Assembly (NCBI GenBank): GCA_964016885.1
Contig: OZ024741.1
Coordinates: forward strand, 137,764,001 to 137,828,000
Length of the DNA stretch: 64,000 nt
Direction of reading: 5' to 3'
Origin: Eledone cirrhosa
Lineage: Eukaryota
Part shown: positions 3,471 to 62,188 of the stretch, piece by piece
Layout: each line of letters starts with the position of its first letter
How positions within the stretch are numbered: position 1 is the first letter of the stretch
Made by a program: the position numbers and the translations under genes
The notes under the pieces: model-generated
What the model was told of the DNA's origin: nothing
The model's input: the letters and a program-made list of their open reading frames with translations, nothing else
Database searches by the model: none

Positions 3471-4150
3471 ATACATGTATGTATGTATGTGTGTGTGTCT
3501 GAGTGGGTTTGTGTATGCACCGGTGTACAAATATTTGGTGAAACATACTATATACATTCACCCTCGAAAATTAAATAAAAGTCTCTACTTTGATTGCAGC
3601 CTTGTATATCTTTTGGCTGTGACTTTAATATGCAGTGGTAAAACTGAGATGAACCTGTAATTTCAAGGTCCAGTCTTGTCGGAATTGTGTCCTGCTACGA
3701 GAATTGCGTTGACAGTGCACCGATCTGTGAGAAGCCCAGTTTTTTGCAGGTTAATTTCTTGAATATATAAGTAGTTCCTATGTTAAACAAATGCATATCT
3801 CGCCGTCGGAACCGACGTGTATTCGACACAATAAAGTTACATACCTATACACATGTACAATTCCACGGAAAAAAATAAGCACATGCTTATACGCACATAA
3901 ATATCCACACACAATAACATGCACATCACAAACATGCACTCACACATTTCCTGTCCAATTTCATTTGTAGAGATTGAAAAAGTTGGCTCTCCAAGCCAAC
4001 GAAACGCACGTTCTGGTATGGCACCGCTGTACTAATTGGCCTTAATAATTATATTAAAAGTTCTCCTACAGAATCTAGTTGCTCTCTATATCAGATATAT
4101 TTACAAAGTAATTATCACTCTATATCCAAATACATATATATATATATATA

Positions 4151-6193
4151 TTATGTAGAAATAACTTCATCAAACGAATTAGATGGAGATCGTTCTTTTT
4201 CGACCACCCTGATGTAGTATCTACCAATAACGAGATGTACGGCTTTAAATCTAATAAGGCTCCACCCACCAACAGCCTACTTGAACCATTTGAAGAAGAC
4301 CTCTTTCAAATGATCAAAAATATTAAATTCAGGAAAGTCAACATACCTTTCCAAACTGACTTAAAGGAGAAACTTCTGAAAATGAAAAGTTCCCCGTACC
4401 TCCACGTCCCTTCAGACAAAACTAAAAACACTTATGCGGTTATTCCCGACACCTACAACAAGCTTGCGGATAATGCCATCACAGCAAAGTACAAAAAAGT
4501 TGATGACACTACTTTGACTGAAACAAACATAGCCGGAAAGAAGATCGCCACTTCCCTTAAACTGGAAGACCGGACAGAACCTCTGAGGGTAAAGTCCCCA
4601 CACTTCACCCTGAAAGACCACAAGAACAACTTTGACAATAAACCGTCGGTCCGGCTGATTAACCCGACCAAGTCTGACATAGGATCCGTCAGTAAGAAGA
4701 TCTTGGACAGGATTCTACCTAGACTACGTGCTGCCTCACCCCTCCCACTCTGGAATAGGACATCAGAGGCAATCACATGGTTCCGGGACTTGCCGGACAA
4801 AAGCAACACCCGCTTCCTGCAGCTAGACATCGAGGATTACTACGCCTCCATATCAGAGAGCCTGCTGATTGACGCGATTAACTTCGCCAGGAACTTAACC
4901 ACTATTACCGAAGCCGAGCAGGAAGTGATCCTCCATGCACGTAAGACCTTTCTTTACCATGACAGATCCCACTGGATCAACAAAAAATCTGAGACCCCTT
5001 TCGATGTTAGCATGGGTGCTAGCGACTCAGCTGAAATTAGTGACCTTGTGGGTCTGTTCATCCTCCACAGGCTGAAGACCCTCTTCACAGGCCTCTTCGG
5101 CGGTCTCTACCGAGATGACGGCCTCTTTGCCCTCCACAAAATCAACCTCAGGACCACGGATGGGTTCAGGAAAAACCTTCACACCTTCTTTAAAAACTTA
5201 GGCCTTAGGATTACCTTAGATTCGAACTTAACTAAAGCTAACTTCCTAGACGTTACCCTCGACTTAGAAACTTCCCTTTACTACCCGTACCACAAACCTA
5301 ATGAATCCCTTAGATATATAGACGTTAACTCTAACCACCCCAAAAATATATTAGACAACCTAGTAAAAAGTATCTCCATTAGGATATCTAGCCTCGTCGC
5401 CAATGAAGATATCTTTAGAGCAGCAGCCCCCTACTACAACGAGGCCCTGGCCCGCAGCGGCTTTAGATATAAGATCACCTACCTTACTATAGCCCCACGC
5501 CCACCCAGGAAGAAGAGGCGAAGGCACATTAGCTGGTACAACCCCCCCCCTTCAACCGAGAAATTTCAACACCTGTAGCTAAAATTTTCTTCACTCTCTT
5601 ACAAAAACACTTCCCCACCCAACATAGGTACTATACTATCCTTAATAAGAATACCATTAGACTCTCTTACTCTACCACACCTAATCTAGCTAGAAACTTA
5701 GCCAACAACAACATCAAGAAGCTAAATAAGTCTACTTTTTCCGAAGCCCATCCAGCAACCGATAGCAACTGCAATTGCCCTGATAAGACGACCTGCCCTC
5801 TCAACAACAACTGTCTAAAAAAAGATCTCCTGTATATATGCGATGTACTCTCAGGCCCCGATGAAAAAAGAAACTCGTACATCGGGATGACTTCTAATAG
5901 TTTTAAGACTCGCTGGTACGCCCACACACATTCGTTCCGGCGCCCAGACAAATCTAACCAAACTACACTCGCCGCCCACATCTGGCACATAAAAAGGAAC
6001 TCCATCGCCTTCAAGACCCAATGGAGACTACTCCAGAGAGCGCGATCATACACGGGAGGCCATAATTGCTGTGACCTCTGTATCTCCGAGAGCTATGAGA
6101 TTCTATTCGCCAAAGGCCCTCTCCTCAATAAGATCTGGGAACACTCCCCTAATTGCATGCACAAGAACTATGCAAATTACAAAAACTACAGAC
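4151..6193 (+). pseudogene. PLE reverse transcriptase plus GIY-YIG endonuclease, single frameshift in C9 run at 5542-5550
   Basis: FIKRIRWRSFFF N-terminus; VRLINP, LQLDIEDYY, VSMGASDSAEISDL, GLYRDDGL, FLDVTLDL. After the frameshift: WYNPPFN...LSYST, CNCPDKTTC (CxCx5C), YIGMTSNSFKTRWYAH, CDLC..E. Confidence 0.92.
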
Positions 6194-8890: not shown

Positions 8891-8894
<4 letters not shown>

Positions 8895-9470
8895 TAGAAT
8901 TGGAGCTCTGAAATAGCAATATATATATGGATGTATATATAATGTATTTTGCAATACACTTTATGCTTAATTAAAAGCATTTTGAAGACCGTAAGCTATT
9001 GTTTTAAAGTAGTGACAACTCACTTACTTTGATCTCAGCAAACAGGGGAGATAAGCCGACAAGTCTTGTTTCGCTTTGGTTGAAGCTTATCAAGGCCAAC
9101 TACCCCTCCTGTCTACCGAGATCACTGATGTTATATTCTTATAGAAATCTAGTAAATAATCAGGAGCTGATTATGCAGAGCGGTTGTTGGTCAGGCAGAA
9201 ATTAAAAATTAGAATTGGAGCTCTGAAATAGCAATATATATATGGATGTATATATAATGTATTTTGCAATACACTTTATGCTTAATTAAAAGCAGTTTGA
9301 CAAATTCACTTACTTTGATCTCAGCAAACAGGGGAGATAAGCCGACAAGTCTTGTTTCGCTTTGGTAAAGTAAGTGAATTTGTCACTACTTTAAAACAAT
9401 AGCTTACGGTCTTCAAAATGCTTTTAATTAAGCATAAAGTGTATTGCAAAATACATTATATATACATCCA
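8891..9470 (-). mobile_element. HHR-bearing non-coding ~315-nt unit (retrozyme/solo-pLTR-like), locus A
   Basis: Direct repeat 8891-8979 = 9206-9294 (period 315); partial third copy 9300-9365; inverted fragment 9366-9470; flanked by (TA)n; homologous to 26806-27264 and 50875-51243. Confidence 0.75.
9054..9097 (-). ncRNA. Type I hammerhead ribozyme, U3:A8 core variant
   Basis: Reverse complement: ggcc-TTGATAA-gctt(caacca)aagc-GAAA-caa(gac)ttg-TC-ggct; stem I extends via acagg.../...cctgt. Confidence 0.75.
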
Positions 9471-9802
9471 TATATATATATATATATATAAAAATATATA
9501 TATATATATATACATACATTCATATTAAAACAATCGAGATGAAACAAGAGTGTATTTGAATACATATAAAAAGGAGAAAACTCATTGCTAGAGCAGTCGT
9601 TAAAACAACTAAATGCTGTCAAAGACAGCGATGGGCAAATATGCCTCAGAAGACAGAGACCAGCAAATAGTGTTCAACAGAGAGACAATGCACAAGGTGG
9701 GTGACAGGCAGACGAAATGTAGAAAAGACTGAAAGAGGAGGAGAACAAGGAAATATACATACATAACTTTGGAGCGAAAGGACATGCGTAAGAACGTATT
9801 GA

Positions 9803-10010
9803 TATAGGCACAAGGCCAGCAATTTGGGGGGGGAGAGGAAAATCGACTAAGTCGACCCCAGTGCATGACTGGTACTTCATTTTATCGACCCAATAAGGAA
9901 GAATGGCAAAGTTAACCACGGTGGGATTTGAACTCAAATCATAAAGGGCCGTAACTCTATGCTGCAAAGTATGGCGGCCGACTCCATACCGATATTGCCA
10001 ATCAACCTAC
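9803..10010 (-). mobile_element. tRNA-type SINE (family A)
   Basis: GGCACAAGGCCAGCAATT...CTGGTACTT..TTTATCGACCC...GGCAAAGTTAAC...GATTTGAACTC consensus, shared by more than 10 copies in the window. Confidence 0.8.
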
Positions 10011-10192
10011 CTCACCGTATTAAATATGATAGGATACAATTGATTAATAATTGAACGATTGTGAGTCACAATTAAAACTTGAGTTAACTATTTTTGTACT
10101 AAAGTTTGCATCAGTGGAATCCAGCTCATGTGGAAAACAATTTGGTCAGAATTACTTGTCCCATATACATAAAAAGCTGGCCTATTGGATAT

Positions 10193-10320
10193 AATTGTTT
10201 CTACTTTGGCACAAGGCCAGCAATTACCCAGTGCATTACTGGTACTTTATTTTATCGATCCCGTAACGATGAAAGGCAAAGTTAACCTCGGCGGGATTTG
10301 AACTCAGAATGGCAAAGCAA
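10193..10320 (-). mobile_element. SINE family A, 5'-truncated
   Basis: Same consensus as 61968-62155. Confidence 0.8.
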
Positions 10321-11072
10321 CTTGAACTTTGCGTCAAAGCAACTTGAACTTTGACGATTTAAGGTCTATAAACTAGCTGTCAAATATTGAGATCCATTAT
10401 TCCGCTACCCACTACATCCACATTTTCTTTCCCAGGAAGAAATCAACTGCATAAATTGAAGTCTTCCAGGTTTACATGCCCAAGACACGCTGTCTGTCAC
10501 TGCGATACCCTTACGACTCAATCCGGATTCAAAGGTCCATGGCGTATATATAAAAAAAGATGAAATATTAAGAAAAAAAGTTTTTCGATAGAAGGATCCT
10601 TGAGTTTAGATATTTTTCAAAAGATAGATTTCTAAAAAGAAATTTTTATTAAAAATGCTACTCATCTATATTGAGAATCTATGAATACATTGATACGTGA
10701 AAACTAGTCATTAGTGAATGGAGAGTTGATTTAAGATTCTGTGATTAATTAATTTTATTCCTGGATAAGGTTTATAACCAGCGGTATAATTAATATATAT
10801 TATCATTTATCTATATCTTTTGCTAATTGACAATCTGAAAGTCAAATAAATCTCTACTAGTAATATGATATGATTTACAGCATAAGTAGAAGCTAAACTA
10901 CCTTTCCATCATTTAGCCAGCATCAGTGAAATTCAGACCACATTAACCTATGTCTACTTGTCAGTGTAAATCATCCCTTAATTCCTAATAGAGTGCCAGG
11001 ATCACCATAGTGATATTTTAACCTTGGTGGCCATCCATCTGCAGGTTTGATCATACCCGATTTTTCCACACA

Positions 11073-12786
<1,714 letters not shown>

Positions 12787-13180: not shown

Positions 13181-13471
13181 GCCAACGCGCAGGCTCTCGT
13201 TTGCGTATAACAGTGAGAGATTAGGAGAGGGAGAGAAACGGAGGCAGTGAATAAAAGAGAGACATCAACGCACACTCACACACACTTGATAAGACAACAA
13301 AAGATGTTATTTTGAAGTGGAGATTCTGTACACTTCCATAGCTGTTCTATTATGCTTTTAGTTGATATGAAATAATGAATGTATGTAGATGGACATTTGA
13401 GTAAAGACATCTAAGTGTCTTGGTCAAGAGCACAACATTATATATACATATCGATTATATTAAAGCTGAAA

Positions 13472-13665
13472 GGGCGGTGGATTGGCACTATCGGTAGAGG
13501 GTCGGACGTCATTGCTTTGACTTATTGAGTTACGGCCCTTGTCATTCTGAGTTCAAATACCGCCGAGGTTAACTTTGCCTTTCATCCTTACGAGGTCGAT
13601 AAAATAAAGTACCAGTAATACACTAGGGTAATAGCTGGCATTGTCCCAAAAGTAGAAACAATTAT
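13472..13665 (+). mobile_element. SINE family A
   Basis: A-box-like TGGCACTATCGG, B-box GAGTTCAAATAC, family body. Confidence 0.8.
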
Positions 13666-13681
13666 ATTAAAGCTGAAAAGT

Positions 13682-19130: not shown

Positions 19131-20177
19131 TAGTAACGAAAGCCATATTTCGGCAAATGAGTTGCAGCCTGACTCTAGAGTGGAAATTCAACGACGTTTA
19201 TCTGTTAACAGTGAAGATAAGCCATAATAACGGAATTAATGTCTATCTAATGACGTAAAAAGTAATAGAAATATTTACTTATGTACACACATGATTACAG
19301 TGTGGTATAGATAGAACACATCACAAGAACGCGCTAGGTAATCGCTATGTCGAGTCACATTCACTTTCAATCAACACCCGCACACAATTACAAATACACA
19401 CGTACACACACACAAACACACACACATATAAATATATGCATGCATACACACATATGCACTTCGATTAAATGGTGATTGTGAATAACTACCAAATTTTCAT
19501 TTCTTATGACGTGTGCACACATACGCATATATACACTTACACACACACACACATACGCATACATACACTTACAAACACACACAAACACACACACATACAC
19601 ACACACACACATATATATATAGATATATATTTCATTTATGTTAGGCTGTTTACCATTGGATAGAACTGGTGGTTCGGATTGATAAATTAAATAAATCAAA
19701 GCGCCCAACATTATTCTATCCTCCATCGTAGATGTAGTATCCAGTGGCTGGTACAGGAACTGTATAAAGTATTCATTAAAACAGCAACAGAAGGCCGAAC
19801 TGGAAACTACTTTAGAATTTTAATTCAGCGGAAGCACTATACATATTTCGATGGCCGAGTTCTATCATCCGATTATGATGCAAGACGAGGCAATTTCATT
19901 CTGTGTTATTTGGCAAATTAAATGATAGGATTACGTTGTACCCAAACAGCGAATAGAAGATAGAAGAAACTAAGAAATTGTAAATAGAAAGTAGAAGATA
20001 GAGGACCGCTTCTCCATTTGGTGTTATACCGATAGCATACAGACCCCGAGTATATATATATATAGTAATAATAATAATAAATTTGAAGACTAAAATCCAA
20101 AGAGGGCTCGATAAGGTTAAATATATATCAAATATATAAGAACCGTAGAGCAAATATTTATTAAAATAACAGATTAA

Positions 20178-20228
20178 AGTTTAAGCAAAGAATCGCTGCT
20201 TTCACCCTTAACGGGATCTTCTGAAACT
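20178..20228 (-). ncRNA. Type I hammerhead ribozyme, U4A core variant
   Basis: Reverse complement: agttt-CAGAAGA-t.ccc(gttaa)ggg.t-GAAA-gcag(cgattct)ttgc-TT-aaact. Confidence 0.65.
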
Positions 20229-20994
20229 AACAAAGTCAATCTGTGAACGCAGAAGTGAATATTTCAAAAAACGATGTAACCGGAGGAAGACAGGAAGACG
20301 ATACTTTGGTCCGTGGAAACGTTCCCTGGCAAAGAACGAAAAAAAAACGAATATAATACGTCATTATTAGGCGCGGTGAAAAACAATTACACGCACAGAC
20401 AAAACCACGTTTATGGTATAAAAGAAGTCGTAGACTAATATTCTATTAGGTGGTTCATAGAGACGTTCTCTGGCAATGAACGGAAAAACCGAATATAATA
20501 CGTCATTATTAGGCGCGGTGAAAAACAATTACACGCACAGACAAAACCACGTTTATGGTATAAAAGAAGTCGTAGACTAATATTCTATTAGGTGGTTCAT
20601 AGAGACGTTCTCTGGCAATGAACGGAAAAAACGAAGATATACGTCATATGTGGAGCGGGAAGAACAATTACACGCAAAGACAAAACCACGTAAATGGTAT
20701 AACTGAAGTCGTAGACTAAAATTCTAACTAGGAAACCGAATGATTCTCGGCTTCAGAGTTAAGAATAAAGTAAATAAAATACAGAGGTAATTGAAATTAA
20801 ATAAATACATACACGCATCCATATACGTACATACACAAGCATACGCGAACACACTCGCCATAGGTATACAAATACACGCACGTTAAAAAAAAAAAAAAAA
20901 AAAATACCGCACGCACATACAGAACCCACGCAACGCCTGTACCCGCACGCATACGAATGTATACACCAAATACACATAAACATATATATAAAGA

Positions 20995-21025
<31 letters not shown>

Positions 21026-21415
21026 CGTGTATACTTATAATTAAATAAACGTATATAAATAAATAAATACGTATATAACAAGCGCATACACATACCTACA
21101 TGTAAATACACATATGTCCGGAGACGTATGTCAACCATACACAAAGTACACATATACACTCACCCTACGTACGTACGAACCCGCATGCTCACACAGACGC
21201 AAAACTCACGTATACACATAACCAAAAGCATATGTACCAGAATATGTAATATATACGCCATAACATATACAATCAAATATACGTACGAGAATGTATACGT
21301 ACCTTCACAAAAGATACAGGTAATAAATACTTACCTATACAAATAAGTAATGGTATAAACATAACATATACTTAGCTACCACATGAAGACGTAAAATATC
21401 CGCGTATAGGTCGTA

Positions 21416-22330
21416 CTATCCGTTAAGGTATAATGTGGGGCTGTAATACAAGAAAGTTTTGCGCAATTTATGTTTACAAGCCGAAATTGCCTCAGATTTT
21501 TTGTTTAAGATGCGGTCTTTGGCGTAGAGTATTTCTAGGGCCTCAGCGGCGCAGAGGTCACATGGTCTTTTATTTCGGTTATCCCGTCTAGCTTTAGCTA
21601 GAATCTCCCAGTGTAACCTATATTGGGTGTGGTTGTCTTTGAGACTCAAGATATAAGCTGAAAGTGACGTCATATTCCTTCTTAAAGGGTTAAGAAAAGA
21701 ATGGGTATGCATGGAAAGACGCTGCCTGAATCTATTGGCGGTTAACCCTATGTAGGTCCTACGGGACGTGGGTGTTTCAACCTTACATTTGTAGACAAAG
21801 TTACTAGAGAGGCATTTCCCGGATAGGGGGCAGTCAACCCGATTCCTACAATTACAGTTAGTACTAACTACAGGGTGGCACGTGTTCCTACGGCTAGGTA
21901 GTTTAGCTAAATTTGAAGCTGTGATGTTATGTGCAAGGTTAGGAGTCGTAGAGTAAGAAATTTTAATAGTATTTCTATTAAAAATGTTACTATATTTATG
22001 TGTAGGGGGAAATGCTTCATAATAATGGACAGAAAGATCTTAGCTAATGGTGTGGCCACCTCCATATTATATGGTGGGTTTTACCATATAATGCGTCGGG
22101 ATCTATTTCTTCCAGGTCTATTCTCGTACTCGGTATATGCTACCTTATCGACAAATCCACTCCAAGCAAGAGCTTTATTGTAATATGTGGAATGGTCGTT
22201 GACAATATGCTCGTTAGTAGATAAACGGGAAAGCCTCAAAGAAACGTTTCCTACCAGGTTCTTGGTTATGCTGGCAGGATGGTTAGAATGCTTACTTATG
22301 TAATTAAGCGTATCATTCGACTTTCTATAC
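21416..22330 (-). pseudogene. PLE2 RT thumb plus GIY-YIG endonuclease remnant
   Basis: LNYISKHSNHP, YYNKAL, IIW*NPPY, CNCRNRVDCPL, TYIGLTANRFRQR, TSLSAYILSLK, PCDLCAAEALEIL. Confidence 0.88.
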
Positions 22331-22931
22331 ATTCGTATGAATTCGTACGTGTGTGGGTACAGGCGTTGCGTGAGTTCTGTATGTGCGTGCGGATTTTTTT
22401 TTTTTTTTTTTTGTGTACGTGCGTGTATTTGTATACCTATAGCGAGTGTTTTCGCGTATGCTTGTGTATGTACGTATATGGATGCGTGTATGCATTTATT
22501 TAATTTCACTTACCTCTGTATTTTATTTACTTTATTCTTAACTCTGAAGTCGAGAATCATTCGGTTTCCTAGTTAGAATTTTAGTCTACGACTTCAGTTA
22601 TACCATTTACGTGGTTTTGTCTTTGCGTGTAATTGTTCTTCCCGCTCCACATATGACGTATTATCTTCGTTTTTTCCGTTCATTGCCAAAGAACGTCTCT
22701 ATGAACCACCTGATAGAATATTAGTCTACGACTTCTTTTATACCATAAACGTGGTTTTGTCTGTGCGTGTAATTGTTTTTCACCGCTCCTAATAATAACG
22801 TATTATATTCGTTTTTTTTTCGTTCTTTGCCAGGGAACGTTTCCACGGACCAAAGTATCGTCTTCCTGTCTTCCCCCGGTTGCAACGTTTTTTGAAATAT
22901 TCACTTCTGCGTTCACAGATTGACTTTGTTC

Positions 22932-22980
22932 GTTTCAGAAGATCCCGTTAAGGCTGAAAGCAGCGATTCTTTGCTTAAAC
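22932..22980 (+). ncRNA. Hammerhead ribozyme copy (U4A) in inverted pLTR
   Basis: gttt-CAGAAGA-tcccgttaaggct-GAAA-gcagcgattctttgc-TT-aaac; one stem II mismatch. Confidence 0.6.
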
Positions 22981-23015
22981 TTTAATCTGTTATTTTAATA
23001 AATAAATATATATGT

Positions 23016-23103
<88 letters not shown>

Positions 23104-23119
23104 TAAAATAACAGATTAA

Positions 23120-23170
23120 AGTTTAAGCAAAGAATCGCTGCTTTCACCCTTAACGGGATCTTCTGAAACT
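23120..23170 (-). ncRNA. Hammerhead ribozyme copy (U4A)
   Basis: Same sequence as 20178-20228. Confidence 0.65.
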
Positions 23171-23994
23171 AACAAAGTCAATCTGTAAACGCAGAACTGG
23201 ATATTTCAAAAAACGTTGCAACCGGAGGAAGACAGGAAGACGATACTTTGGTTCGTGGAAACGTTCGCCGGCTAAGAACGGGAAAAAACGAATATAATAC
23301 GTCATTAATAGGAGCGGTGAAAAGCAATTACGCGCAAAGACAGAACCACATTTATGGTATAAAAGAGGTCGTAGACTAATGTTCTCTTAGGTGGGGCATA
23401 GAGACGTTCTCTGGCAATGAACGAAAAAACGAAGATAATACGTCATATGTGGGGCGTGGAGAACAATAGCGCGCAAAGACAAAACCACGTAAATGCTATA
23501 GCAGAAGTCGTAGACTAAATTCTAACTAGGAGACCGAATGAATCTCCGCTACAGAGTTAAGAACAAAGTAAATAAATACAATACAGAAGTAATAGAAATA
23601 AATAAATACGTACATACACAAGCATACGCAAAAACTTACCATAGGTAAACAAAACCACGCACATATAAATATGTGTGTGTGTGTAAGCGTGTCTACAAAT
23701 AAATAAATAATTATATAAACGTATATAAATAAATAAATACGTATATAACAAGCGCACACACATACCTACATGTAAATACACGAATGTTCGGAGACGTAAG
23801 TCAACCAAAACATGAAGTACACATATACACACGCCCTACATACATACGAACCTGCATACTCACACAGACGCAAAACTCCCGTATACACATAGCCGAACCA
23901 TATATACCAGAAATATAAAAAATTATACGCCATAACAATCAAATACAAGGAATACAAGCCCTCTTTGGATTTTAGTCTTCAAATTTATTATTAT

Positions 23995-24396: not shown

Positions 24397-24605
24397 GATA
24401 ACAAATTATCGTTATAGGTAATCCAGTTAGATGTGAGTACTCTGTATTGTGGATAGTTTTAACGTATGGCGTTGTTTGACTCAACAAGAGATTTCCTTAG
24501 TTAGGTACCGAGTTTGCGAGAATTCCCATGCAGGTCATTCTTGGAGTAATAGTGGTGAAAGAGTGAAGAATAAAATGGTCGGCTGTATAAATAGTGTTTT
24601 ATTTA

Positions 24606-24720
24606 CAGTATTAACAATTGTTTCATTGACCAGGTGAGGCTAAAGGTCGCTAATCGTTGGAAATTGTGTCACTCGACCTTAAATACAGTGTGTGTCTCTG
24701 ATCAAATCATCGGAATACTG
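24606..24720 (-). ncRNA. Type I hammerhead ribozyme, U4C core, long branched stem II
   Basis: Reverse complement: cagtatt-CCGATGA-t.ttgatcag...aaggtcg..cgacctt...ctggtcaa.t-GAAA-caattg-TT-aatactg; 7-bp stem I. Confidence 0.7.
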
Positions 24721-26689
24721 GAGGGTGTAAGACATGGAATTGGTATTTGTAGATACATCGGAGAATCAAGTGAATGAAAGCAATAACATCAATACTAAAA
24801 GATAGTAATAAAGAAGTAAAAATGAAAATTATAAAGATGTAAAAAATGAGTAAAAAAATAAGAACAAAATACGGTTGCTGATAATAGTAGTAATTGTGGT
24901 GGTAGTTGAAATTATAATGGTGAGTAAGTGGATGTGTAAAATATTGATGACAGTAAAGATAACAATAACATGAAAAGAAATACGAAATACATGATATATA
25001 TTATAAATGCAAGACGTACAATCAAATCTCAGAGGATTAAAATAAAAAAATATAAAATAAGAGGTAATAGAGAAAGGGATAATGAATAGGAGACAGAGAG
25101 TGAGGATAAGGATTCAAGGATGAGACATAAAGGGTAGGACTAAGGACGGGGAAGGAGTAGATAGATCGATAGAGAATAAAAAGTGAAAGGGGCAGTGATG
25201 ATATACGGGTGATTAAGGTCTGGTAGATCGATTGTTTTATCTTAATGGAGGTTATAGAGAGAGAGTGAAAGAAATGTTGGGAGATTCATGATGTTGAATT
25301 AATGATCGGGTGGTCGGTTGACAGCTAATAACTGTGGAGGGGTGTGAAGCTAGTACATTAAAACCCGAGTGGTTTAGATTGAATTCCGAGATTGCTGGAC
25401 CGAGTCATGCCGGCTGTGGTTTGAAGTTATAGAACTTGGTGGCTGCTTTGTGCATACAGAAAATTCTATTTTGTTGTTAAGCAGCATTTTATCATACTTT
25501 AAAATATGCAGCAGCTCAATATTGCAAAGTCCGCAGTGGGACATTCCCTTTTTGTAGGCCTTTGCACCCGATAAGTTCGACAACCTAATATCGTATTCCT
25601 GGTTGATGTAACTTAAGCTGCCAAATCTTATTGGCCAGCGTCGTTGAGTTCTCTAGTCTACGATTTTTTATAGAATGCCTATGCACATACCATCTTTTTT
25701 TGAAATCCCCAGCTGTAGAACATATGTGGTGCCATGCTAGGTTGCCTGATTTGATAGTACAAACGTACACTATACATGATTCTATGCATCTATTTTGTAG
25801 TGGGCATTTATTTGGCAGGTGGCAGTTACATTTGGAGGCCTTCCTGTGTGCAGGTTCTCCGTTGCGGTTTTGTATGTTGTTAGGATGGGCTGAGGTTTAG
25901 GTTTATTGGTGTTTTGTTGCGATGTGCCCTGCCGTGTGGGTGGTTGCGATGTTGTTATGTGTTTGCGTTTTGTATTTGGTTCTATAGTGTATGTTGGTAG
26001 GTTACTTCCATTAGAGATATTTTTCAAGTTGATTTTAGTATGTGTGATTTCCGTGTTGGTTGCAGTAGAGTAAGAGAGTTTGATAGTTTTTCTGTTAAAG
26101 ATTCTATGGGATTTGTGTAGTTTAGGGAAGTGTTTGTCAATTAGTTTAAATAATATAGAAGGTAGGTTGGTTTTTATAGAAGAGTTGAAGATTGGATTGA
26201 AGCATAAATATTTCCTATCTCTGGATTTTCTGGAGTTTCTAGGGGTCACTATATTAGAGTTCGGTTCGGCTATTCCTCGCTCTCGTTGCCTATTTCCATG
26301 TTTAGTTCTATATTTATTATTCCAATAGGTGCGGGTAGTGTAGTTGTCGTTATGTTTGTAGTTGCTGTCTCTATCTGGTATGTATTCGAGCCCCTCCTTG
26401 TGGCTTGCTTTATGTAAATCTATGTTATAGTAGTTTGCGTGTTCATTATCCCTAGGTTTGAAGGCAGGCAGGATATTCTGAGGGATATACTATGTGCTAT
26501 CGAGTTAATTATGGAGCGAGGGAAGCTTGAGCTACTATTATCAGCAACCGTATTTTGTACTTATGTTTTACATCTTTATCATTTTCATTTTTACTTCTTT
26601 ATTACTATCTTTTAGTATTGATGTTATTGTTTTCATTCACTTGATTCTCCGATGTATCTATAAATACCAATGCCACGTCTTACACCCTC

Positions 26690-26796
26690 CAGTATTCCGA
26701 TGATTTGATCACACTGTATTTAAGGTCGAGTGACACAATTTCGTGTGATTAGCGACCTTTAGACTCACCTGATGAATGAAACAATTGTTAATACTG
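26690..26796 (+). ncRNA. Hammerhead ribozyme copy (U4C) in inverted pLTR
   Basis: cagtatt-CCGATGA-...-GAAA-caattg-TT-aatactg. Confidence 0.65.
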
Positions 26797-26805
26797 TAAA
26801 TAAAA

Positions 26806-27258
26806 CGCATTCTTTTATGCTTATCAAAGCTAACTACTCCTCCTGTTTGCTGAAAATCATGAATGTTTGATTCTTATAGAATTCTAACAATAATACACTA
26901 TATATACATTCATATATATATCGCTATTTCAGAGCACCAATTCTAATTTTCAATTTCTGCTTGACCGGCAACCGCTCTGTATAATCAGTTCCTGATTATT
27001 ACTTGAATTCTGTAAGAATCAAACATTCTTGTTTTTCAGCAAACAGGAGGATTAGTTAGCTTTGATAAGCATAAAAAATGCGAAACAGAGCTCTGTCAGC
27101 TTTATCTCCCCTGTTTGCTGAGAATTAAAGTAAGTGAGACTGTCACTACTCTAAAACAATAGCATAAGGTCTTCGAAATGCTTTTAATTAAGCATACAGT
27201 GTATTGCAAAATACACTATATATACATTAATATATATATCGCTATATCAGAGCACCAA

Positions 27259-27264
<6 letters not shown>
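26806..27264 (+). mobile_element. HHR-bearing non-coding ~318-nt unit, locus B
   Basis: Terminal direct repeat 26892-26946 = 27210-27264; inverted fragment 26806-26885; ends in (TA)n. Confidence 0.75.
27058..27101 (+). ncRNA. Type I hammerhead ribozyme, U3:A8 core variant
   Basis: agct-TTGATAA-gcat(aaaaa)atgc-GAAA-cagagctctg-TC-agct; stem I extended by tcagcaaacagg/cctgtttgctga (27036-27121). Confidence 0.8.
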
Positions 27265-27302
<38 letters not shown>

Positions 27303-27477
27303 ATATATATATATATATGTACACACACATACATATGAAGTTATTTAAAATCCATGGTATGCAATTCAATATATTGATGTCGCAATGCAGATAAGCATAA
27401 TAATAATTGCTATCTATAGAAGAAAGTTGCATAAATTGCATAACTTAGTTATGCCAACCAAATACTATTATGAATAA

Positions 27478-27657
27478 TTGGCAGTATCGGTAGAGGGTTG
27501 GACGCCATGCTTTCCAGCATAGTTTCGTCCCTTTACGATCTGAGTTCAAATTCCGCCGAGGTTGACTTTGCTTTTCATCCTTACGGGGTCGATAAAATAA
27601 AGTACCAGTGATGCACTGGGTAATTGCTGGCCTTGTGCCTAAAGTAGAAACAATTAT
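27478..27657 (+). mobile_element. SINE family A
   Basis: TGGCAGTATCGGTAGAG...CTGAGTTCAAATTCCGCCGAGG...; flanked by TATTATGAATAATTG / AATTATGAATAATTG, which looks like a target-site duplication. Confidence 0.85.
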
Positions 27658-28120
27658 GAATAATTGCATTGGGGGTGATTTACAAATAATTCGTACTAAA
27701 ACAATATTATTTACAATCATTTGGATGTTATGATACATTTTCATCATTGTTCTGTAAGAGTAATTTTAGCCATTGAAACAAACAGAACATTATATTCACT
27801 TATTGTTTATTGTTAAGTAATACTCTCCATTATGATTTGCCACGGTCCTACGTCGTACTCATAAGACCTCGCCACTGAAACATTGGTCTGCAAATATTAT
27901 TCCTAATTAGGTCACAAAACTTCCCCGAAACGTGTAGGTATTTCATAAGAGAAAGTATTATTAAGAAATAGAAGGAAATGGATTACAAATAGAATATCTG
28001 TTGAGTAATTACTGAAATTAAATTTACACGATGTCATTGTTTCTATTTTAACAAGCGGTCTCAGACAATCATATTACTTTCCTCACATACGCATTCACAC
28101 ACCCATGCTCGTATATATAT

Positions 28121-29529: not shown

Positions 29530-29705
29530 TTTGAGGGGGGGGGGGGGAAAGTCGATTAAATCGAACTCCAGTGCGTTACTGGTGCTTTATTTTATCGAAC
29601 CCACAGGACGAAAGGCAAAGCTAACCTCGGCAGGATTTGAACTCAGAACGTAAAGGGCTGTAACTGTATGCCACAAAGTATGGCGTCTACCGATACTGCC
29701 AATTG
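29530..29705 (-). mobile_element. SINE family A
   Basis: Family consensus. Confidence 0.75.
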
Positions 29706-31033: not shown

Positions 31034-31997
31034 GTAAGATTATATATCCACATACATATTTATGTAAGTATCGAAGTATATTTTCCTATTTATTCAAATA
31101 TATTGATTCATCTAAAGGTTAGGTTGGATATAATATAAAACAAAATATTTATTTGAAAAAATACACCACTTTTAAGATAATAGAAACATGAAAGAAGCAT
31201 TAATGCGATAACCTGTCTCTACATTTACACGCCATATTCTAACCTTTTTATCGTGTGTATTATACTGTTTTTGTTTTGGAACATCGCTTATCACTTTTCC
31301 TGTGGCTACATCCAAATAATGTCTCTATTTTACTTTCAATTCCATTCATTAATATGTATCTATTCACGGATGTATCTATAGCATGCATTAAGTGATATCT
31401 TGATCTAGCGACCTGTTGTCTGACTAACTGTTTGATTGATTCATCCATTTCAATATTCAGGTTTGCCTCTAAAATCATAGGGATACCCTCCTGAGCTCTT
31501 TGATCAACCATGTCTACTATTGCCTCTTTTCCCTCTATGAATAGCAAGCAACTTACCTATATTATCCACTTACCTTGCCCATCCTTTCAAGCATACATAT
31601 ATTATTGCATCCACCTTTTATTCATTCAATGATAATTTTCTTTATCTATTGAACCATCAAGAAACGCCACCGCTGCGACAACCATCACCATTAACACTAT
31701 CAATAACACAATCAACGTAATTAGCAACCCGCTAACACAACCATGAAAGGCAAAAGACCTGTCAAATATTTCAATAGAAACATAACAAAATAACACTGAA
31801 TCTTTCTTCAAACAGTTTTCCAAACACAGTTGCTGGACATATACAAAAAATGACAGAAATTGAATGATCTCAACACCTATTTTCTATGAAATGCTACAGA
31901 CACAATACAGAAAATTAAGAAGAAAAATTACTGTTAAAAAACTACTATAGCATAGTAAACTCTCCCCAATTTGATTAAACCTGTGTAGAATATGATG

Positions 31998-32192
31998 GCT
32001 TCTGATTTAGGTACAAGGCCAGCAATTTGGAGGGACGGGAAAGTCGATTAAATCAACTGGTACTTTATTTGACCGACCCTTAAGGATGAAAGGTAAAGCA
32101 AACCGCGACGGGATTTGAACTGAAACGTAAATGGCCGTAACTATATTCCACAAAGCATATTGTCTGACAATCTACCGATACTGCCAATCCAC
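31998..32192 (-). mobile_element. SINE family A
   Basis: Family consensus. Confidence 0.75.
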
Positions 32193-32849
32193 AGCCTTTT
32201 TTCTAGAATATAATAGTAACATATCTAGAATTTGTATTTCCTCGAACTGTGAATCAAAATGTATTGTCCTCTTATCAATTCTTATTTATCCTATACCAAC
32301 ACAACATACATACCATATAAATCAGATGATATTACAATTGATTCATCCCTTAATTACTCAGATGTTGTCATCTTTATTCAAACATTTCGTCAAAATATCC
32401 TAGAAACCTGTCATCAAAATCGATAAAAAATACGATATGAAAACACACACACTTCTCTTCTAGCCTGATCACAAAAGAGGAGCAGCAAATGAAACTAATC
32501 AATATATCAAACAAGCTGATCATATACTCACCAACTCTTAACTAATTATTTATATTATACCACTTTATTAAAATATATCCTAAATCTATGTCTCATATTC
32601 AAGGGGAACCTACTCTAGCCCACCAATACCTTCCCCACCAATACCCCCACCACCCAGTCCTACACAAAAGATCCACCTTTTCCTTCTCTCCAGGACGTGA
32701 TCCCTCCGGAATTTCATAACCTTCAACGTATTTTCTGCAGGAATCATCTTATATACAATTCCAGTTGATTATATACGGGTCGACCTGAAAATGTCATCTG
32801 CCCAACACCGTCTATTTGATTAAGTCATACAAAAGTACCAAGATGATAT

Positions 32850-43317: not shown

Positions 43318-44022
43318 ATATACAAGATTTTAAAGTATTCCGCAGTTCACAGTAATAATAATAATACTAGCTCGAAGAAGAACAGAGAATTTTCATCTGA
43401 GCTCAAATACAAATATATTACACAGAGAGAAGTGTGTTACACAGTGAGATGTGTGCAAAAAATTATTACATGTGAGTTTAACCGTTACTGTATGGAGAAC
43501 TACAGGTTAGCAATTAAATAGAACAATACCTAAGTCAGAATCAAATCTCTGAAGTAGAGTTTTAAATTACTAACCTTATAACTATAATCTTGCTGATACG
43601 AATTTAGTTCGTTTCACCACCGAAATGTGCGGTATAACAGCCCATAGGATCCTCAGTCAGCAAGTATGGGTACTGTCCACCACACATCTAACCTAATGGA
43701 TAGAGAGAAAGCTAATAATACGCTGTCCAGAGTAGGGCGAAATCACGTGTTATGTGCACCAGATAACGGCTCTCATGAATTGGGGGAAAATGCTAGAGAG
43801 AGAGAGCAGCCCAACTATTCGAATTTATTAGCTCTACAATCCGGAGCTCGTTAAATATACAAAGATCGGAATTAAAGTATTCCGCAGTTCACAGTAATAA
43901 TAATAATTGTTTCTACTTGAGGCACAAGGCCAGCACATACCCAGTACATTACTGGTACTTTATTTCATCGACCCCGTAAGGATGAAAGGCAAAGTTAATA
44001 ATACTAGCTCGAAGAAGAACAG
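43318..44022 (-). mobile_element. HHR-bearing non-coding ~542-nt unit with terminal redundancy; SINE inserted in one repeat
   Basis: TTAAAGTATTCCGCAGTTCACAGTAATAAT...ACTAGCTCGAAGAAGAACAGA at 43330 and 43872; the second is split by a SINE A fragment at about 43907-43995. Confidence 0.7.
43589..43664 (-). ncRNA. Type I hammerhead ribozyme with branched stem II
   Basis: Reverse complement: cttgctga-CTGAGGA-t.cc[tatgg..ttata][ccg..cgg]t.gg.t-GAAA-cgaa(ctaaa)ttcg-TA-tcagcaag; perfect 8-bp stem I. Confidence 0.85.
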
Positions 44023-45822: not shown

Positions 45823-48101
45823 TTATAAGTTATATATAGTTCTGAATGTTGAAATCTGGCGATGTCTACAAGAATTAAATAAATTCGTTCTTAGATTAAT
45901 AGAGTTTTTACATTTAAGTATGTAAAATATTTCCTCAATACACAATTTTCAGAATCTAGATGAAGCTGTGTTTCGGTACGTGGGTGCTTTTGAAATTGTT
46001 TCCCAAGCTAATGAATAGTCCATATTCTTGCATTTTAAGTTCCATATCAGGTTTGAAAGAGAAGTTGAAGATTTTTTATCAAATCTTCGGAAAGAGCAAT
46101 TGTGGTTATTCCAGCGACTTTTAAATTCTTTAGAAGTTGCTCCGACATAGTTAAATATATTATCACTAGTTTTAACTGTACATTTTCATCTAAACTGTAC
46201 GTTTTCATCTAAACACTTATTTTGTAAAGGACAGTTTGATTTAATTCTACAGTTACATTTTGCGGAGTTGTTGTTGTTCGGAACGGTACTATTATGTTGG
46301 ATATTGCTAGAGATATTACTGCTATTTTGGTTATTTTGGTTATGGTTTAAATTTCTATTATTAATTCTATTTATATTTTGTGCTATGTTCATAGTAGTAG
46401 AGTAGGATAGTTTTATAGTATGTCAGTTAAAGATTGAGTAGTATCTGTGGGTTTTAGGAAAACATTTATCTAGTGCTTTTAAGAATAGCTTTGCTAAAGG
46501 TGTTCATACGCTTAATGAGAATGTGGGTGAATACCAAATAATATTTCTAGTTCTAGTTCTTCTGTTAGTTTTAGAGTTTAAGTTAATTTTTTTAATTATT
46601 ATTACAATTAATAGTAGGGTTATTTGCCTTATTGTCGATGTATTTAATCTTATTTCTATAAGATTAAATTTCTGTCGATGTATTTAATCTTATTTGCCTT
46701 GTTGTCGATGTATTTAATCTTATTTCTATACCCTGCTCTATTTAAAGCTTCATTATAATATTCTGCCTTATCGTCAAAAATGTTTTTATTAGCGGAGATG
46801 CGTGAAATCCGTTGTTGGACTGAATTGACAATAGTGTTCTTGATAGATCTAGGATGATTAGAGTTAAAACTTACATAGTTTAGATTTTCATTAATTTTAT
46901 GGAATGGAGAGTAGAGCCCTGTGTTAAGGTTTAATGTTACGTCTAAAAAGTTAACACTTTTATAGTTATTCTCTATTTCTAACTTAAGGTTGTAGCTATT
47001 GAAGAATTGTATTATCGATTTTCTTTTCTCATTAATTTCACAATTACTATGATTTTCAATTAAAAGCAGCATATCATCACGATATAAACCACCGGTCATC
47101 TCTGGTATTTTTCTATGCAGTGTATTATTAATACATAGCCTCACAAGATCAGTTATTTGCCCTGAGTCAGATGATCCCATGGTGATATCAAAATTATTTT
47201 TTCTATCGGCTCTTGTCCAGAGATGATTGTTGAATTCAATTAAAGTTTTCCGTGCAGTTAAAATGATATGCATTTCCTCACTTGTTAAATCTGTATGTTT
47301 AGATGCATAGATAAGAGCTTTATTAAGAAAACTAGGAGTAATAGATGAGTAGTAGTTTGCAATATCCATTTGAATGAATTTTTTGTTATGTTTAAATTTT
47401 ATGTTATTGAACCAATCTTAGTACCTTTCCATAGTTTTAGGTAAGATATTTCTTTAAGTTGCAGTATGATTCTATATAATATATGTTTACTAACTATGCC
47501 TAAGTCTGATTTAGATGGTGCTATAAGTCTGACTGGTAGTTCTATTTCAAAGTTTCTTTGTGGTCTCTCAGCTTAATTTTCGGTATTCTAGATATAAAGG
47601 GTTCGGTCCTATTTTCGATGCCTAATTTATGAATTATTTCAAAGCTTCTCTATTTACATTTTCAAGTTCTTCATTAGTTGTTATTTTGTAGTTTTTCCGT
47701 AGTTCTTTCAATATAAGGTTATTGTATTCGTCCATTTGCATTCCGTATAGATTGTTAGTTTTGTCCGATTTTACGAGGATCTTCTCAGTTTTTTCAAGAT
47801 TGTCTATATTATTCTTGAGGCCTTTAAGGTATTCCTGGCCTACAAATTGGTTTTTCTTGAATTTGATGTTTTGTATAATCGATATTATTTCATTTTGAAA
47901 TTCCATTAATAGGTTGTTGTTTCTTGGATTTGGAGATCATATCGAAGTTGTAACTGGATTTATTTGTTTTTTCATCTGATTTTCTATCGAAATTGAAGGC
48001 ACACCATCTAAGTCTTCTATAAAGGAGTCAGATTTCTCATAATCCTTATTCTTAGGTAAAGGTACATCTTTTAGAGAAGAAGAAATCCTAAAGAATTCCA
48101 T
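45823..48101 (-). pseudogene. PLE5 RT plus GIY-YIG ORF, multiply disrupted
   Basis: MEFFRISSSLKDVPLP..RRLRW, VKSDKTNNLY, QMDIANYY, ITMGSSDS, GGLYRDDMLL, FLDVTLNL, CNCRIKSNCPL, YVGATSKEFKSRWNNH, SSTSLSNLIWNLK. Confidence 0.9.
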
Positions 48102-50874: not shown

Positions 50875-51243
50875 TCGAAAATAAGTAAGTGACATAGTTA
50901 CTACTTTAAAACAAATAGCGAATGGTGTTCTAAATGTTTTTAATTAAACATACGCTATATTGCCAAATGTACTATACATACATTCATGTAGACATCGCTA
51001 ATACCTAATTTTTGTTGTACTGGCAATCACTCTGTATAATCAGCTCCTGATTAATACTGGAATTCTATAAGAATCTAATTTTTATAATTTTCGGTGGAGG
51101 CAGGGGAGTGTGTGGTTTTGATAAACGCCAACCACCGAGAAACAGACTGTCAATCACTCTCCTTTTATTTTCTTCGAAAATAAGTAAGTAACATAGTCAC
51201 TACTTTAAAACTAATAGCGAATGGTCTTCTAAATGTTTTTAAT
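50875..51243 (+). mobile_element. HHR-bearing non-coding ~299-nt unit, locus C
   Basis: TCGAAAATAAGTAAGT...CTAAATGTTTTTAAT at 50875 and 51174; homologous to loci A and B but starts at a different phase. Confidence 0.72.
51112..51157 (+). ncRNA. Type I hammerhead ribozyme, U3:A8 core variant
   Basis: gtggtt-TTGATAA-a.cg(ccaaccac)cg.a-GAAA-cagactg-TC-aatcac; stem II is weak. Confidence 0.62.
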
Positions 51244-53755: not shown

Positions 53756-53775
53756 TATTATCATTATTATTAGAG

Positions 53776-54152
53776 CGGTGGATTAGCAGTATCGGTAGAT
53801 CGTCGCACAATATGCTTTGTGGCATATAATTACATCCCATTACGTTCTGATTTCAAATCCCGCCGATGTTAAACTTTGCCTTTCGTCCTTACGGGGTAGA
53901 TAAAGTAAAGCACCTGTAACTGACACAAGGTCGATTTAATCGATTCTCCCCTCCGCTAAAACTGCTGGCCTCGTGTCTAAATCAGAAACCAGGGATAGAG
54001 TTACGCCTCTTTACGTTCTGAGTTCAAATCCCACCGAGGTTAGCTTTGCCTTTCATCCTTACAGGGTCGAAAAAAAAAGCATCAATAATGCACTGCGATC
54101 GATTTAATCAACTTTCCCATGAAACTGTTGGCCTTGTGCCTAAATCAGAAAT
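53776..54152 (+). mobile_element. Two tandem SINE family A copies
   Basis: Family consensus at 53776-53990 and 54000-54152. Confidence 0.75.
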
Positions 54153-54679
54153 CATTATCATTAGTAGTAGTAGCAATATTTATAGTAGTAGTAGTAGTAG
54201 TAGTAGTAGCAGTATTTTTTCTAGCTTCAACACAAACCGCAGATTTTAAGAAACGACTGTCGTTTTAATCGACTACAGTACTTTAATGATATTTGTCAAT
54301 TCTGGACGTGATGTAAATCAAAAGCGATAGTGTCAGGATTTGAAGAAAGGAGTAAGGTAGGTGAAGATTTTTATATTTGTGTTCTTTTTGTAATGACGTC
54401 AGCATCTATTGACGAGGTGGTGGGGGTGTGTGACAGTAAGTTAGCGTGGTTTTATGGGAAGAGTTGCGTGAGGGTCGGGTGTAGGTCGGGTGTTGTGGTA
54501 GAAAGTTAGAGTAGATTTATTGGAAGGAGGAGATGGGGAGGAGTGGGGTAGAATGCTAGCCTGGATTTATCGGAAGGCAACAACAATAATATCACACCTG
54601 TCAACATATATCTATATTTATGATGTGTTCAACAACAATATCATCCATGTTGATGTTGGAGGGAGGGTGATAGCGGTCT

Positions 54680-59149: not shown

Positions 59150-61320
59150 ACCGAATAGGGGACAGTGATGTGAGTGCAGTGGAGTTCCATGAGGATGTGT
59201 GTAGAACTGTCAACACCAAACCAGCTCATAACATCCTGCTTGTTCTGGGTGCCTTCAATGCACATCTGAGTAAGGAGAGCAGTGAAGATCCTTGCTGATG
59301 CTTCCATAACGACACGAACCGAAATGGGAGACTAATGAGGGACACCCTACTGGAGGCGAACTTGATGGCAACCAACCTAAGGTTTAGGAAGAATCCGGGG
59401 AAGATGTGGACTTACATCTCTGATATGCACCTGTCCAAGTCCCAGAATGATTTTAAACTGGCGAGGAAGAAGTGGCGGAATAGGCTTCTGAACACAGAGC
59501 CATACAGTTATTTCAGTACACTGGGCGGTGTACACCGGCTTGTTATGAGCGAGCTCCGGGTGAGCTTAAGAAACAGTAAGGCTCAGCCCCAGATAGCAAT
59601 CTATGATGGGGAGCTTCTAAGGAAGATGATAAACTACAGGAGAGGTATACAGTAGAAGTGAAGAACAGGTTCAGTGCTCTGTGTGGAGAGGCAGAGCAGA
59701 GAGACATTGTAGAGAAGGAAGAATGTTGTACCGCTTCCACTGAGAACAGAGAGGAGGCGCTGATAGAAAAGATCAGAAGTGTAGAGAGAGCGGTTGACAG
59801 GTCTAGTTGTAAAGAGAGTTGGACGATCATCAACGAGACCACAGGGAGGAAGAGAGTAAATTCGAGTCAGATCCAAGAAACAGGGCCCGAGTATAGGAAG
59901 AGGAAATGGCTGGACAATTTTAGGACTCTACTAGAATAGCCGCGCTCCACAGCCCAGAGCACTGCGGAGATCAGGCAGCTGTTTGAGGAAATGCATATTG
60001 AGATGGGACCCTTCGTCAGAGAGGAGCTTGATAGAGCCAAGATGAAGATCAAGGAGGGGAAGGCCAATGGAGAAGATGGAGTGGCATCATAGGTGATGAA
60101 GCGGTGTGATTTTAATGATATCATCCAGGATTTCTGTAACCGGTTTCTGGAGAAAGGAGTTGCTCCTTTCTCCAGAAACATCGTCCCACTGCCAAAGAAG
60201 GGAGATCTCTCTAACACTAACAACTACTGATTCTTAGGAGGATCCAGCCCCAGGTGGAGAAGAAGCTCAGGGACAATCAGAACTGCTTCAGAGCAGGAAA
60301 TTCAACCACCAGTCACATGCTGATGCTGAGGAGGATATTAGAGGGATCTAGAGCAAAGAGCCTTCTTACTGTCATGGGTTTCATTGACTTTAGGAATGCC
60401 TTTGATTCTGTGGACCGTCACTGCCTGATGAAGATCTTACAGGCTTCTGGAATCCCCAAGAAGATAGTGGACCCGATATCACTGCTCTACACCAACACCA
60501 GAGCCCAATTCATTACACCTGACGGGATGGCGGAGTTCTTTGTGATATTGATTGGCGTGCTAGCGGGAGATACATTGGCTCCTTACCTTTTTATCATCGC
60601 AGTGGACTACTGTATGTGCCTTGCACTGGAGAAATACCAGGAGTCTGGTATTACTGTAGCATTGGCTCAGAGCAGGAGAGTTAAGGCTAAAAAGATATCA
60701 GATGCTGACTTTGCTGACAACATAGTTCTGGTGACAAACACAGTGAAGGAGGCAGAGGATTGGGTGCAGAAGGTGGAAACTGTGTCGATGAACGTGGGGC
60801 TGAGAATGAATGAGATTGACATGAAGTATCTGGTAGAGAACATTAAGAAGCCAGAGAAAATTATGAATGTATGCGGGAAGCGGCTAGAATTGGTTGAGTC
60901 GGACCTTCGTATAGACCTGAAGATCCATCTCTTCGTTGCTACAGTGGAGTATGTGCTACTGTACGTGTCTGGGACTTGGACACTGAACAAGAAACTCACT
61001 CAGGCGATGGATGGGTGCTACACGAGAAGGCCAAGGATGGCTCTGAAAATTACTCAGTATATACTGAGGATGAAGAACGCAAAGCTGTATGAGATCCTCC
61101 CAAAGTCAGCTCGAAAGTAACACAGAGGAGACTGAGGTTAACTGGTCATGCTCAATTACATTCAGAGTTGAGACTGCACTCAGTGCTGCTGTGGGAGCCC
61201 AAACACGGACAAACTAGAAGAGGGAGACCGAGGTTGACATATATTGATCCCATAAGAACAGACACTGGTGTCTGGAAGACGCAGGACATGGCATACATGA
61301 TGAAGGACAGAGACCGCTGG
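59150..61320 (+). mobile_element. Degenerate RTE-type LINE (APE C-terminus plus RT)
   Basis: LVLGAFNAHL, IVPLPKKGDLS, FIDFRNAFDSV, GVLAGDTLAPYLFII, DADFADNIVL, RRGRPRLTYID; many stops and frameshifts; (GA)n tail. Confidence 0.88.
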
Positions 61321-61601: not shown

Positions 61602-61967
61602 CAAGGTTTAGCAAATAGAGAAAAAGTTTTCAAATAAATTTTAAAAAGTTCGCTGTACTTACTATATGTACCTTTACCGCGCGGTTTCAAATCCCCAAAT
61701 AAATGGATAATCCAGGCGGACTTTCATTGAGAAGGGGACTCTCGTCAGAACGTTTTTCTCGCTCGGAGAATATAAAATTCCCGAGTTCAAATCACAAACT
61801 GGCGCCATACAAAACTGTTCCCGGATGAGAGTGAATGAGGAAGGAACCAATTTTGTCTAGAGCCGTGTGTAAAGACAGGAGGCAGAGGCGGACAGGTCAA
61901 TGTCCTGCCACTAGAAATAGCAGCAGTTCAAACGACCAAAATGTTATCTCAACCTTAGGGGGTTTAA

Positions 61968-62155
61968 TAATAATTGTTTCTACTTTTGGCACAAGGCCAG
62001 CAATTTCCCAGTGCATTGCTGGTACTTTATTTTATCAACCCCGTAAGGATGAAAGGCAAAGTTAACCTCGGAGGGATTTGAACTCAGAATGGCAAGGGCC
62101 GTAACTCTATGCGTCAAAGCATGGCGTCCGACCCTCTACCGATACTGCCAATCCA
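61968..62155 (-). mobile_element. SINE family A, full-length
   Basis: Reverse-complement head GTGGATTGGCAGTATCGGTAGAG (A box) and CTGAGTTCAAATCC (B box); flanked by AATAATA. Confidence 0.85.
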
Positions 62156-62188
62156 CAATAATAGAGTATGTTTTCCTAGGTGTAACAA

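Follow-up and report, generated by a model that had tools for sequence, protein, structure and literature searches.

The Origin of Three UUGAUAA Motifs

Three sites in a 64,000-nucleotide stretch of the Eledone cirrhosa genome (contig OZ024741.1, positions 137,764,001 to 137,828,000; the whole of this stretch is referred to here as the window) have UUGAUAA in the place of the CUGANGA of a hammerhead ribozyme core. The locus poses the question of whether these are hammerheads with U3:A8 substituted for the catalytic C3:G8 pair, and what kind of element carries them. A sequence-only reading of the window had placed such cores, each with a GUC triplet, at all three sites, and we found them there, with U3 at 27062 (+), 9093 (minus strand) and 51118 (+), and C17 of the triplet at 27097, 9058 and 51151, respectively.

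The focal type I hammerhead, located by descriptor scan at 27058..27101 (+), comprises stem I (27058-61/27098-101), the core from U3 to A9 (27062-68, with A8 at 27067 and A9 at 27068), a 4-bp stem II (27069-81), the GAAA (27082-85), a palindromic stem III (27085-96) and C17 (27097), 3' of which the cut is predicted. It is carried by a long extended stem I hairpin (27033..27124, +), delineated by folding and covariation, which has an MFE of -39.1 kcal/mol and a z-score of -6.48. The second U3:A8 hammerhead, of another subfamily, lies at 9054..9097 on the minus strand, the strand having been left out of the earlier reading, and the third, a member of a more diverged clade that also contains C3:G8 copies, is at 51112..51157 (+). 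The stems pair as the earlier reading had given them, stem II of the 51112 copy, which it called weak, being decayed with 2 of its 4 pairs kept; this copy fails the descriptor scan, and its fold z-score of -0.67 is no better than that of shuffles (compared to -6.48 for the focal copy and -7.32 for copy 2). On the two strands of the window the scan produced four type I motifs in which position 3:8 is a Watson-Crick pair, U3:A8 in two of them and C3:G8 in the other two, and none in any of 20 local shuffles.

Known hammerhead structures suggest that loop II may make a tertiary contact with a bulge in stem I. In this family stem I is bulged, and in most copies stem II has 4 bp and loop II 6 nt, with the loop II adenines and the stem I bulge U conserved at 90% or more in our alignment (described below); the focal copy is short by one loop base. 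Stem III is not an ordinary hairpin: in most aligned rows it is a palindrome or near-palindrome of 9-13 nt, giving 3-5 bp and a loop of 1-4 nt. The pattern Y3-U-G-A-N-R8-A ... GAAA ... UH of the type I core is present, with 3:8 paired in 71 of 73 aligned sequences, and three covarying helices surround the core with helix I open-ended, copy 3 having lost most of its stem II. The three window motifs are thus confirmed as real type I hammerhead-shaped RNAs with a U3:A8 core, for which cleavage is predicted.

One Repeat Family in Thousands of Copies

All three motifs lie inside one AT-rich non-coding repeat of ~318 bp (unit 316-318 bp, GC 34%, longest stop-free frame 48 aa), the units of the window being 84% (copy 2 to focal), 73% and 74% identical to one another over 226-322 aligned bases. 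As these copies are paralogues of a single repeat, the U3:A8 pair seen three times is one inherited trait. The focal full unit of 318 bp (26948..27265, +), the last ~20-30 bp of which are an optional tail, is followed by (TA)n and preceded by a 5'-truncated, pseudo-LTR-like tandem piece (26892..26947, +; unit positions 263-318, 96% identity) and by an inverted fragment (26806..26894, -; unit positions 48-135) that contains the 5' half of a hammerhead and stops where an unrelated Penelope-like insertion starts. The full unit of copy 2 (8893..9207, -) likewise ends at (TA)n, and beside it are a 5'-truncated tandem unit with the 3' half of a hammerhead (9363-9208, -) and an inverted truncated unit (9366-9487, +). 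Copy 3 (51007-51243, +) has a partial tandem upstream (50883-51000, +). Each window copy has one complete hammerhead.

In the 3.0-Gb, microsatellite-rich genome, a tight pattern for two clades identified 3,871 exact-pattern copies and a pattern for the third clade 937 matches, the control giving 0 in both cases. A loose U3:A8 pattern returned 5,023 matches against 274 for its reversed control; by hand, 87 of the first 100 were assigned to the family and 13 lay outside it, six of these 13 being one LINE reverse-transcriptase motif. A second apparent U3:A8 family from the loose pattern was rejected, as it sits in LINE reverse-transcriptase coding sequence. A LINE reverse-transcriptase coding motif also resembles a hammerhead, with either C3:G8 or U3:A8, at the loci L096 and L140-L148, and is a source of false positives for pattern censuses. 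Two loci are head-to-tail arrays of six intact hammerheads each, spaced by 316 bp in L150, where the units are 99.7-100% identical, and by 316-317 bp in L149. What the sequence-only reading overlooked, then, is that its motifs belong to one mobile repeat with thousands of copies, for which action as a dimer is predicted. None of the papers listed by our literature searches, which covered few subscription titles, describes this family, and a prior annotation is possible.

Detection by Rfam and Pattern Searches

Rfam gave no hammerhead match to the focal copy up to an E-value of 10, while copy 2 matched Hammerhead_HH9 with 27 bits (E 0.017), under the gathering score of 52. Across the whole window there was no gathering-level hammerhead, and the rest of the matches were microsatellite-driven miRNA hits. 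Such sub-gathering scores bar assignment to an Rfam family, not to the ribozyme class. Our covariance model R1 scored the focal copy, one of its own training sequences, at 96.1 bits. The expectation that a strict CUGANGA search would pass over most copies was correct; as Rfam too overlooks most of this large retrozyme family, censuses that rely on such descriptors and on Rfam may undercount retrozymes.

Covariation of the Stems

We aligned 73 of 99 distinct hammerhead regions, after excluding rows that were mis-anchored or truncated and some that were nearly identical to others, and with window references standing for two of the rows. Under the assigned structure 89.7% of 2,223 cells are paired, and the covariation score of 0.382 compares to 0.211 for shuffled alignments (reached in 0/500) and to at most 0.138 with slid partners. 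Two-sided changes occur at five of the six stem I pairs, all four stem II pairs and two of the five stem III pairs (73%, 87% and 97% paired, respectively), and at 9 of the 15 pairs of the extended stem I helix, which is 93.8% paired. At the subfamily level stem II has at least five fully paired forms. The outcome was weaker in two further controls, a pair-level shuffle (19/500) and a pair-type control (389/500), and, because the rows are related and the counts are made without phylogenetic independence, we regard the covariation as support and not as a significance test. Eleven columns are invariant in the 73 sequences, nine of which are core positions. The covariation first proposed from three copies is consequently borne out across subfamilies, with two-sided changes in stems I, II and III.

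Lineages with U3:A8 and C3:G8

In the 73 rows the 3:8 pair is UA in 66, CG in five and another combination in two. The third clade was examined with a pattern open at positions 3 and 8, and a hand count of the first 100 of its 937 matches gave 57 C3:G8, 36 U3:A8, four C3-A8 and three U3-G8. These counts indicate that both paired states were amplified, the mismatches being at the level expected from post-insertion decay, and that the swap is visible within one family, with C3:G8 and U3:A8 lineages and few mismatched intermediates. In a tree built from flanks only (86 copies, 215 columns, unrooted), a clade with support 1.0 unites all C3:G8 copies with some that have U3:A8, and a further clade of U3:A8 copies is separated from the rest (0.98), a topology compatible with a swap in either direction and with one or several events. 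The proposal that U3:A8 is a compensatory swap of C3:G8 is supported by these data, both states being amplified lineages of one family. At 10.1-11.1, the C3:G8 copies of the third clade have an A-U pair, but in the U3:A8 sister lineage an A10.1-A11.1 mismatch prevails, and this calls for caution on the activity of that lineage.

The two larger clades gave no signal of selection when position 8 was compared with position 7. Against 3,871 copies, U3 without A8 occurred in 24 and loss of the tolerant U7 in 40 (ten of them in one cluster), and since non-A8 is about as rare as non-U7, the comparison shows youth of the copies, not selection. Selection on the structure, as first claimed, is an inference for the source copies; it does not extend to the three inserted copies of the window, one of which, copy 3, is decaying.

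The swap itself is not new, contrary to what the earlier reading implied. Natural hammerheads with U3 and A8 as a covarying replacement of C3 and G8 were reported, and described as active in vitro, by Perreault et al. (2011, PMC3088659), and a dedicated descriptor found ~1,300 U3-A8 matches among Penelope-element hammerheads of Schistosoma in 2014 (PMC4209133). The swap is shared with the examples of Perreault et al., which as presented there are scattered, whereas here it characterises amplified lineages of one family. In the mutational data given for another hammerhead, a G:C swap rescues at the 3:8 pair and other double changes in that motif are low (PMC9901934), so that tolerance of U3:A8 may depend on context.

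Insertion Anatomy and a Probable Link to Penelope-Like Elements

For insertion anatomy we used 83 loci, picked from the pattern searches with overlaps dropped. Tandem pieces are present in 63 of them and an inverted piece in 46. The pieces number 211 in all; their starts are scattered, but 184 have an end at unit position 290 or beyond. Eighty-five of these 184 ends run into a microsatellite, 65 into a next unit and 34 are unclassified, several of the last being visibly next-unit junctions. The ~20-30 bp tail was scored at 188 ends as present in 111 and absent in 77, a loose classification in which "absent" includes decayed copies. Penelope-like insertions are described as marked by partial tandems, by 5'-truncated copies in inverted orientation, by a tail that may be present or absent and by a bias towards microsatellites (Craig et al., 2021, PMC8557442), and the tail of a Penelope element has been traced to two internal starts of reverse transcription (PMC11167929). 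The insertions of the unit have this anatomy: fixed 3' ends, an optional tail, partial tandems, 5' inversions and a microsatellite target. They differ from the non-autonomous Penelope-like elements of those two accounts in that the tail is ~20-30 bp and that the loci sampled from a few families included no autonomous element with a similar 3'-end.

Penelope-like RT/GIY-YIG elements with open frames of at least 750 aa are abundant in the genome, with >50,000 candidate Penelope matches. Their identity is based on the RT and GIY-YIG motifs and on the cysteine pattern of the linker; Pfam recognised none of six Penelope-like frames and named RVT_1 in two of two LINE frames. An autonomous partner sharing the unit was not found in 16 long loci of the family of the window element at 4112, in six loci of a C3:G8 family of ~3,000 copies, or in 30 loci of a 21.4-kb family, the comparisons revealing only independent neighbouring insertions; these are loci of a few Penelope families, a thin sampling relative to the candidate matches. 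A match 3.4 kb upstream of the ORF in L071 was rejected as a partner, being a separate insertion. Among 79 upstream flanks that are not themselves unit sequence, none was common to different loci and none had a Penelope ORF on the same strand.

The window and the sampled loci contain several other mobile elements. The window element at 4112-6192 (+) is a young Penelope-like element with a frameshift near 5500-5550 and ~95% protein identity to genomic copies, and scans found no hammerhead near its family. At 45841-48077 (-) a decayed Penelope-like RT/GIY-YIG element lies between same-strand C3:G8 hammerhead-like motifs at 48347 (-) and 44783 (-), in which stem II is long and stem III is a palindrome of (TA)n, the element being a pseudo-LTR-flanked copy; related motifs are present in L082 and L083. 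In L136-L138 long Penelope ORFs have next to them hammerheads of a different C3:G8 family, which is very uniform, accounts for most of 3,080 matches and is unrelated in sequence to the U3:A8 unit; in L137 the ORF is bracketed by two same-strand copies. Two more Penelope-like insertions of the window have long inverted repeats. The one at 20155-23665 contains, in the terminal region, a tandem of 140-142 bp, and the one at 24596-26806 meets the inverted piece of the focal repeat at position 26806. Other tandem repeats, ~420-470 bp in length (L081:8817, 9238; L082:7742, 8214; L086:7106), carry type I hammerheads that have C3:G8 and a palindromic stem III with a loop of 4 nt; R1 scores them at 25-42 bits, and they are probably further retrozyme families. 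The window also contains LINE-type reverse transcriptase fragments (11554-12354, -; 60221-61117, +; Pfam RVT_1) and a dispersed repeat of ~190 bp, SINE-like by size, at 9857-10341, 13454-13671, 27477-27663, 29546-29703, 31992-32214, 43898-43998, 53772-54158 and 61963-62156.

Folding and Proposed Life Cycle

The predicted folds differ between single and tandem units. In single copies the hammerhead form is 4.8-7.1 kcal/mol above the minimum fold, which sequesters the core. In each of four natural tandem pairs, by comparison, a double hammerhead is only 0.2-2.3 kcal/mol above the free minimum and two monomeric hammerheads are 11-17 above it; these energies take no account of tertiary contacts. 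Folded as a circle, the unit has a z-score of -4.7. The window copies, having one complete hammerhead each, are predicted to cleave poorly alone, and they are probably passive inserted offspring.

Our main reading, to which we give a probability of about 0.78, is that the motif is a type I U3:A8 hammerhead in a non-coding repeat of ~318 bp, likely a non-LTR retrozyme and likely copied by Penelope-like proteins, with self-cleavage predicted to occur mainly as a tandem double hammerhead. Tandem arrays would be transcribed, the palindromic stems III of adjacent units would pair, and a cut after the GUC in each unit would release monomers of 316-318 nt that may circularise. A Penelope-like RT/GIY-YIG protein could then act in trans, initiating reverse transcription at fixed internal positions that lie ~140-170 nt 3' of the cut and inserting the product at (TA)n; this would account for the fixed 3' ends and the optional tail as well as for the partial tandems and the 5' inversions. 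Re-amplification would be confined to copies in which 3:8 is paired. Against this reading speak the weak cleavage described for minimal Penelope hammerheads (PMC4209133) and the insertion of one Penelope element in vitro without any need for hammerhead cleavage (PMC11167929).

Alternative Explanations

That the motifs resemble hammerheads only by chance, in repeat DNA rich in AT, might be suggested by the lack of an Rfam hammerhead match for the focal copy and by the capture of coding false positives by loose patterns (the 13 non-family matches of the first 100), yet it is already refuted by the empty scans of 20 shuffles, by compensatory changes in all stems and by a sister lineage with the canonical C3:G8 core, and we give it practically no weight. 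A different possibility is that the fold persists for a structural or protein-binding role, or that it cleaves only rarely, and that the element moves as uncut read-through RNA. The sequestered core of the monomer minimum fold (hammerhead form +4.8 to +7.1 kcal/mol) is compatible with this, as are the insertion ends, which do not match the cut site, and the in vitro finding for one Anolis Penelope element that hammerhead cleavage is dispensable for insertion (PMC11167929). A plain hairpin, however, needs no pairing at 3:8, and in the amplified lineages this pair switches only between Watson-Crick states; together with the 11 invariant columns of the 73 sequences, nine of them in the core, this makes movement as uncut RNA improbable in our view.

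The copies could instead be 5'-truncated 3' ends, that is pseudo-LTR remnants, of an autonomous Penelope-like element outside our sample, and not a self-contained retrozyme. The insertion architecture is of the Penelope type, other hammerhead families of this genome flank Penelope ORFs (L136-L138 and window 48347/44783), and Schistosoma Penelope elements carry U3-A8 hammerheads (PMC4209133), all of which agrees with such remnants. Against them, the units follow one another head to tail at a constant spacing of 316-318 bp, without an intervening ORF, and the unit was not found in any Penelope family tested, with 0/79 upstream flanks common to loci or bearing a same-strand Penelope ORF. We judge this reading to be quite improbable, and favour the self-contained retrozyme.

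Relation to Known Retrozymes and Penelope Hammerheads

As a non-coding, low-GC unit within 150-450 bp with one type I hammerhead, found in head-to-tail tandems with intact hammerheads (L149 and L150), the repeat has the sequence features of a non-LTR retrozyme. With metazoan non-LTR retrozymes as described by Cervera and De la Pena (2020, PMC7229834) and in a recent preprint (Li et al., bioRxiv 10.64898/2026.07.22.740005) it shares the non-coding low-GC unit of ~300 bp, the single type I hammerhead and the occurrence of monomers, dimers and tandem multimers. A short palindromic stem III favouring dimeric cleavage, described for axolotl retrozymes, is predicted to have the same effect here. Unlike those described retrozymes, the family has U3:A8 as its dominant core, with cleavage predicted and RNA circles putative, and at the sampled loci shows no pseudo-LTR relative belonging to an autonomous element.

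The Cercyon Penelope-like elements of Schistosoma mansoni (Cervera and De la Pena, 2014, PMC4209133) have the same core swap in >1,000 copies, mostly as single motifs and in a Penelope context, and their hammerheads are described as minimal, lacking helix III and having an extended helix II. The octopus unit is unlike Cercyon in its 4-bp stem II with a mostly 6-nt loop, bulged stem I, palindromic stem III of 3-5 bp and non-coding sequence. With helix III present (a palindrome of 9-13 nt) and helix II of only 4 bp, it is not the minimal Penelope hammerhead (min-HHR), in which helix III is lacking and helix II is long, with one base bulged at 9/10.1.

It is well supported that this family is a fairly ordinary addition to the retrozyme kind, with a core variant that has been in print since 2011; the feature of some specialist interest is the coexistence in one family of amplified C3:G8 and U3:A8 lineages. 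The insertion scars support the idea, put forward recently, that Penelope-like elements mobilise the retrozymes of animals, the non-LTR retrozymes being regarded in that proposal as derived from Penelope elements and non-autonomous (Li et al., bioRxiv 10.64898/2026.07.22.740005). A broader idea, which we advance tentatively and consider to have distinctly less than an even chance, is that the catalytic C3:G8 pair was replaced by U3:A8, possibly more than once, during the spread of a canonical-type retrozyme family, and that each of the two states rose to hundreds or thousands of copies, the mismatched intermediates never being amplified. If true, nature would have run in this family an in vivo experiment in selection on the active site of the hammerhead, and its insertions would directly record retrozyme RNA moved by Penelope machinery to which it has no sequence similarity. 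The matched natural C3:G8 and U3:A8 sisters are material with which to test the neutrality of the swap and the context in which it is tolerated.
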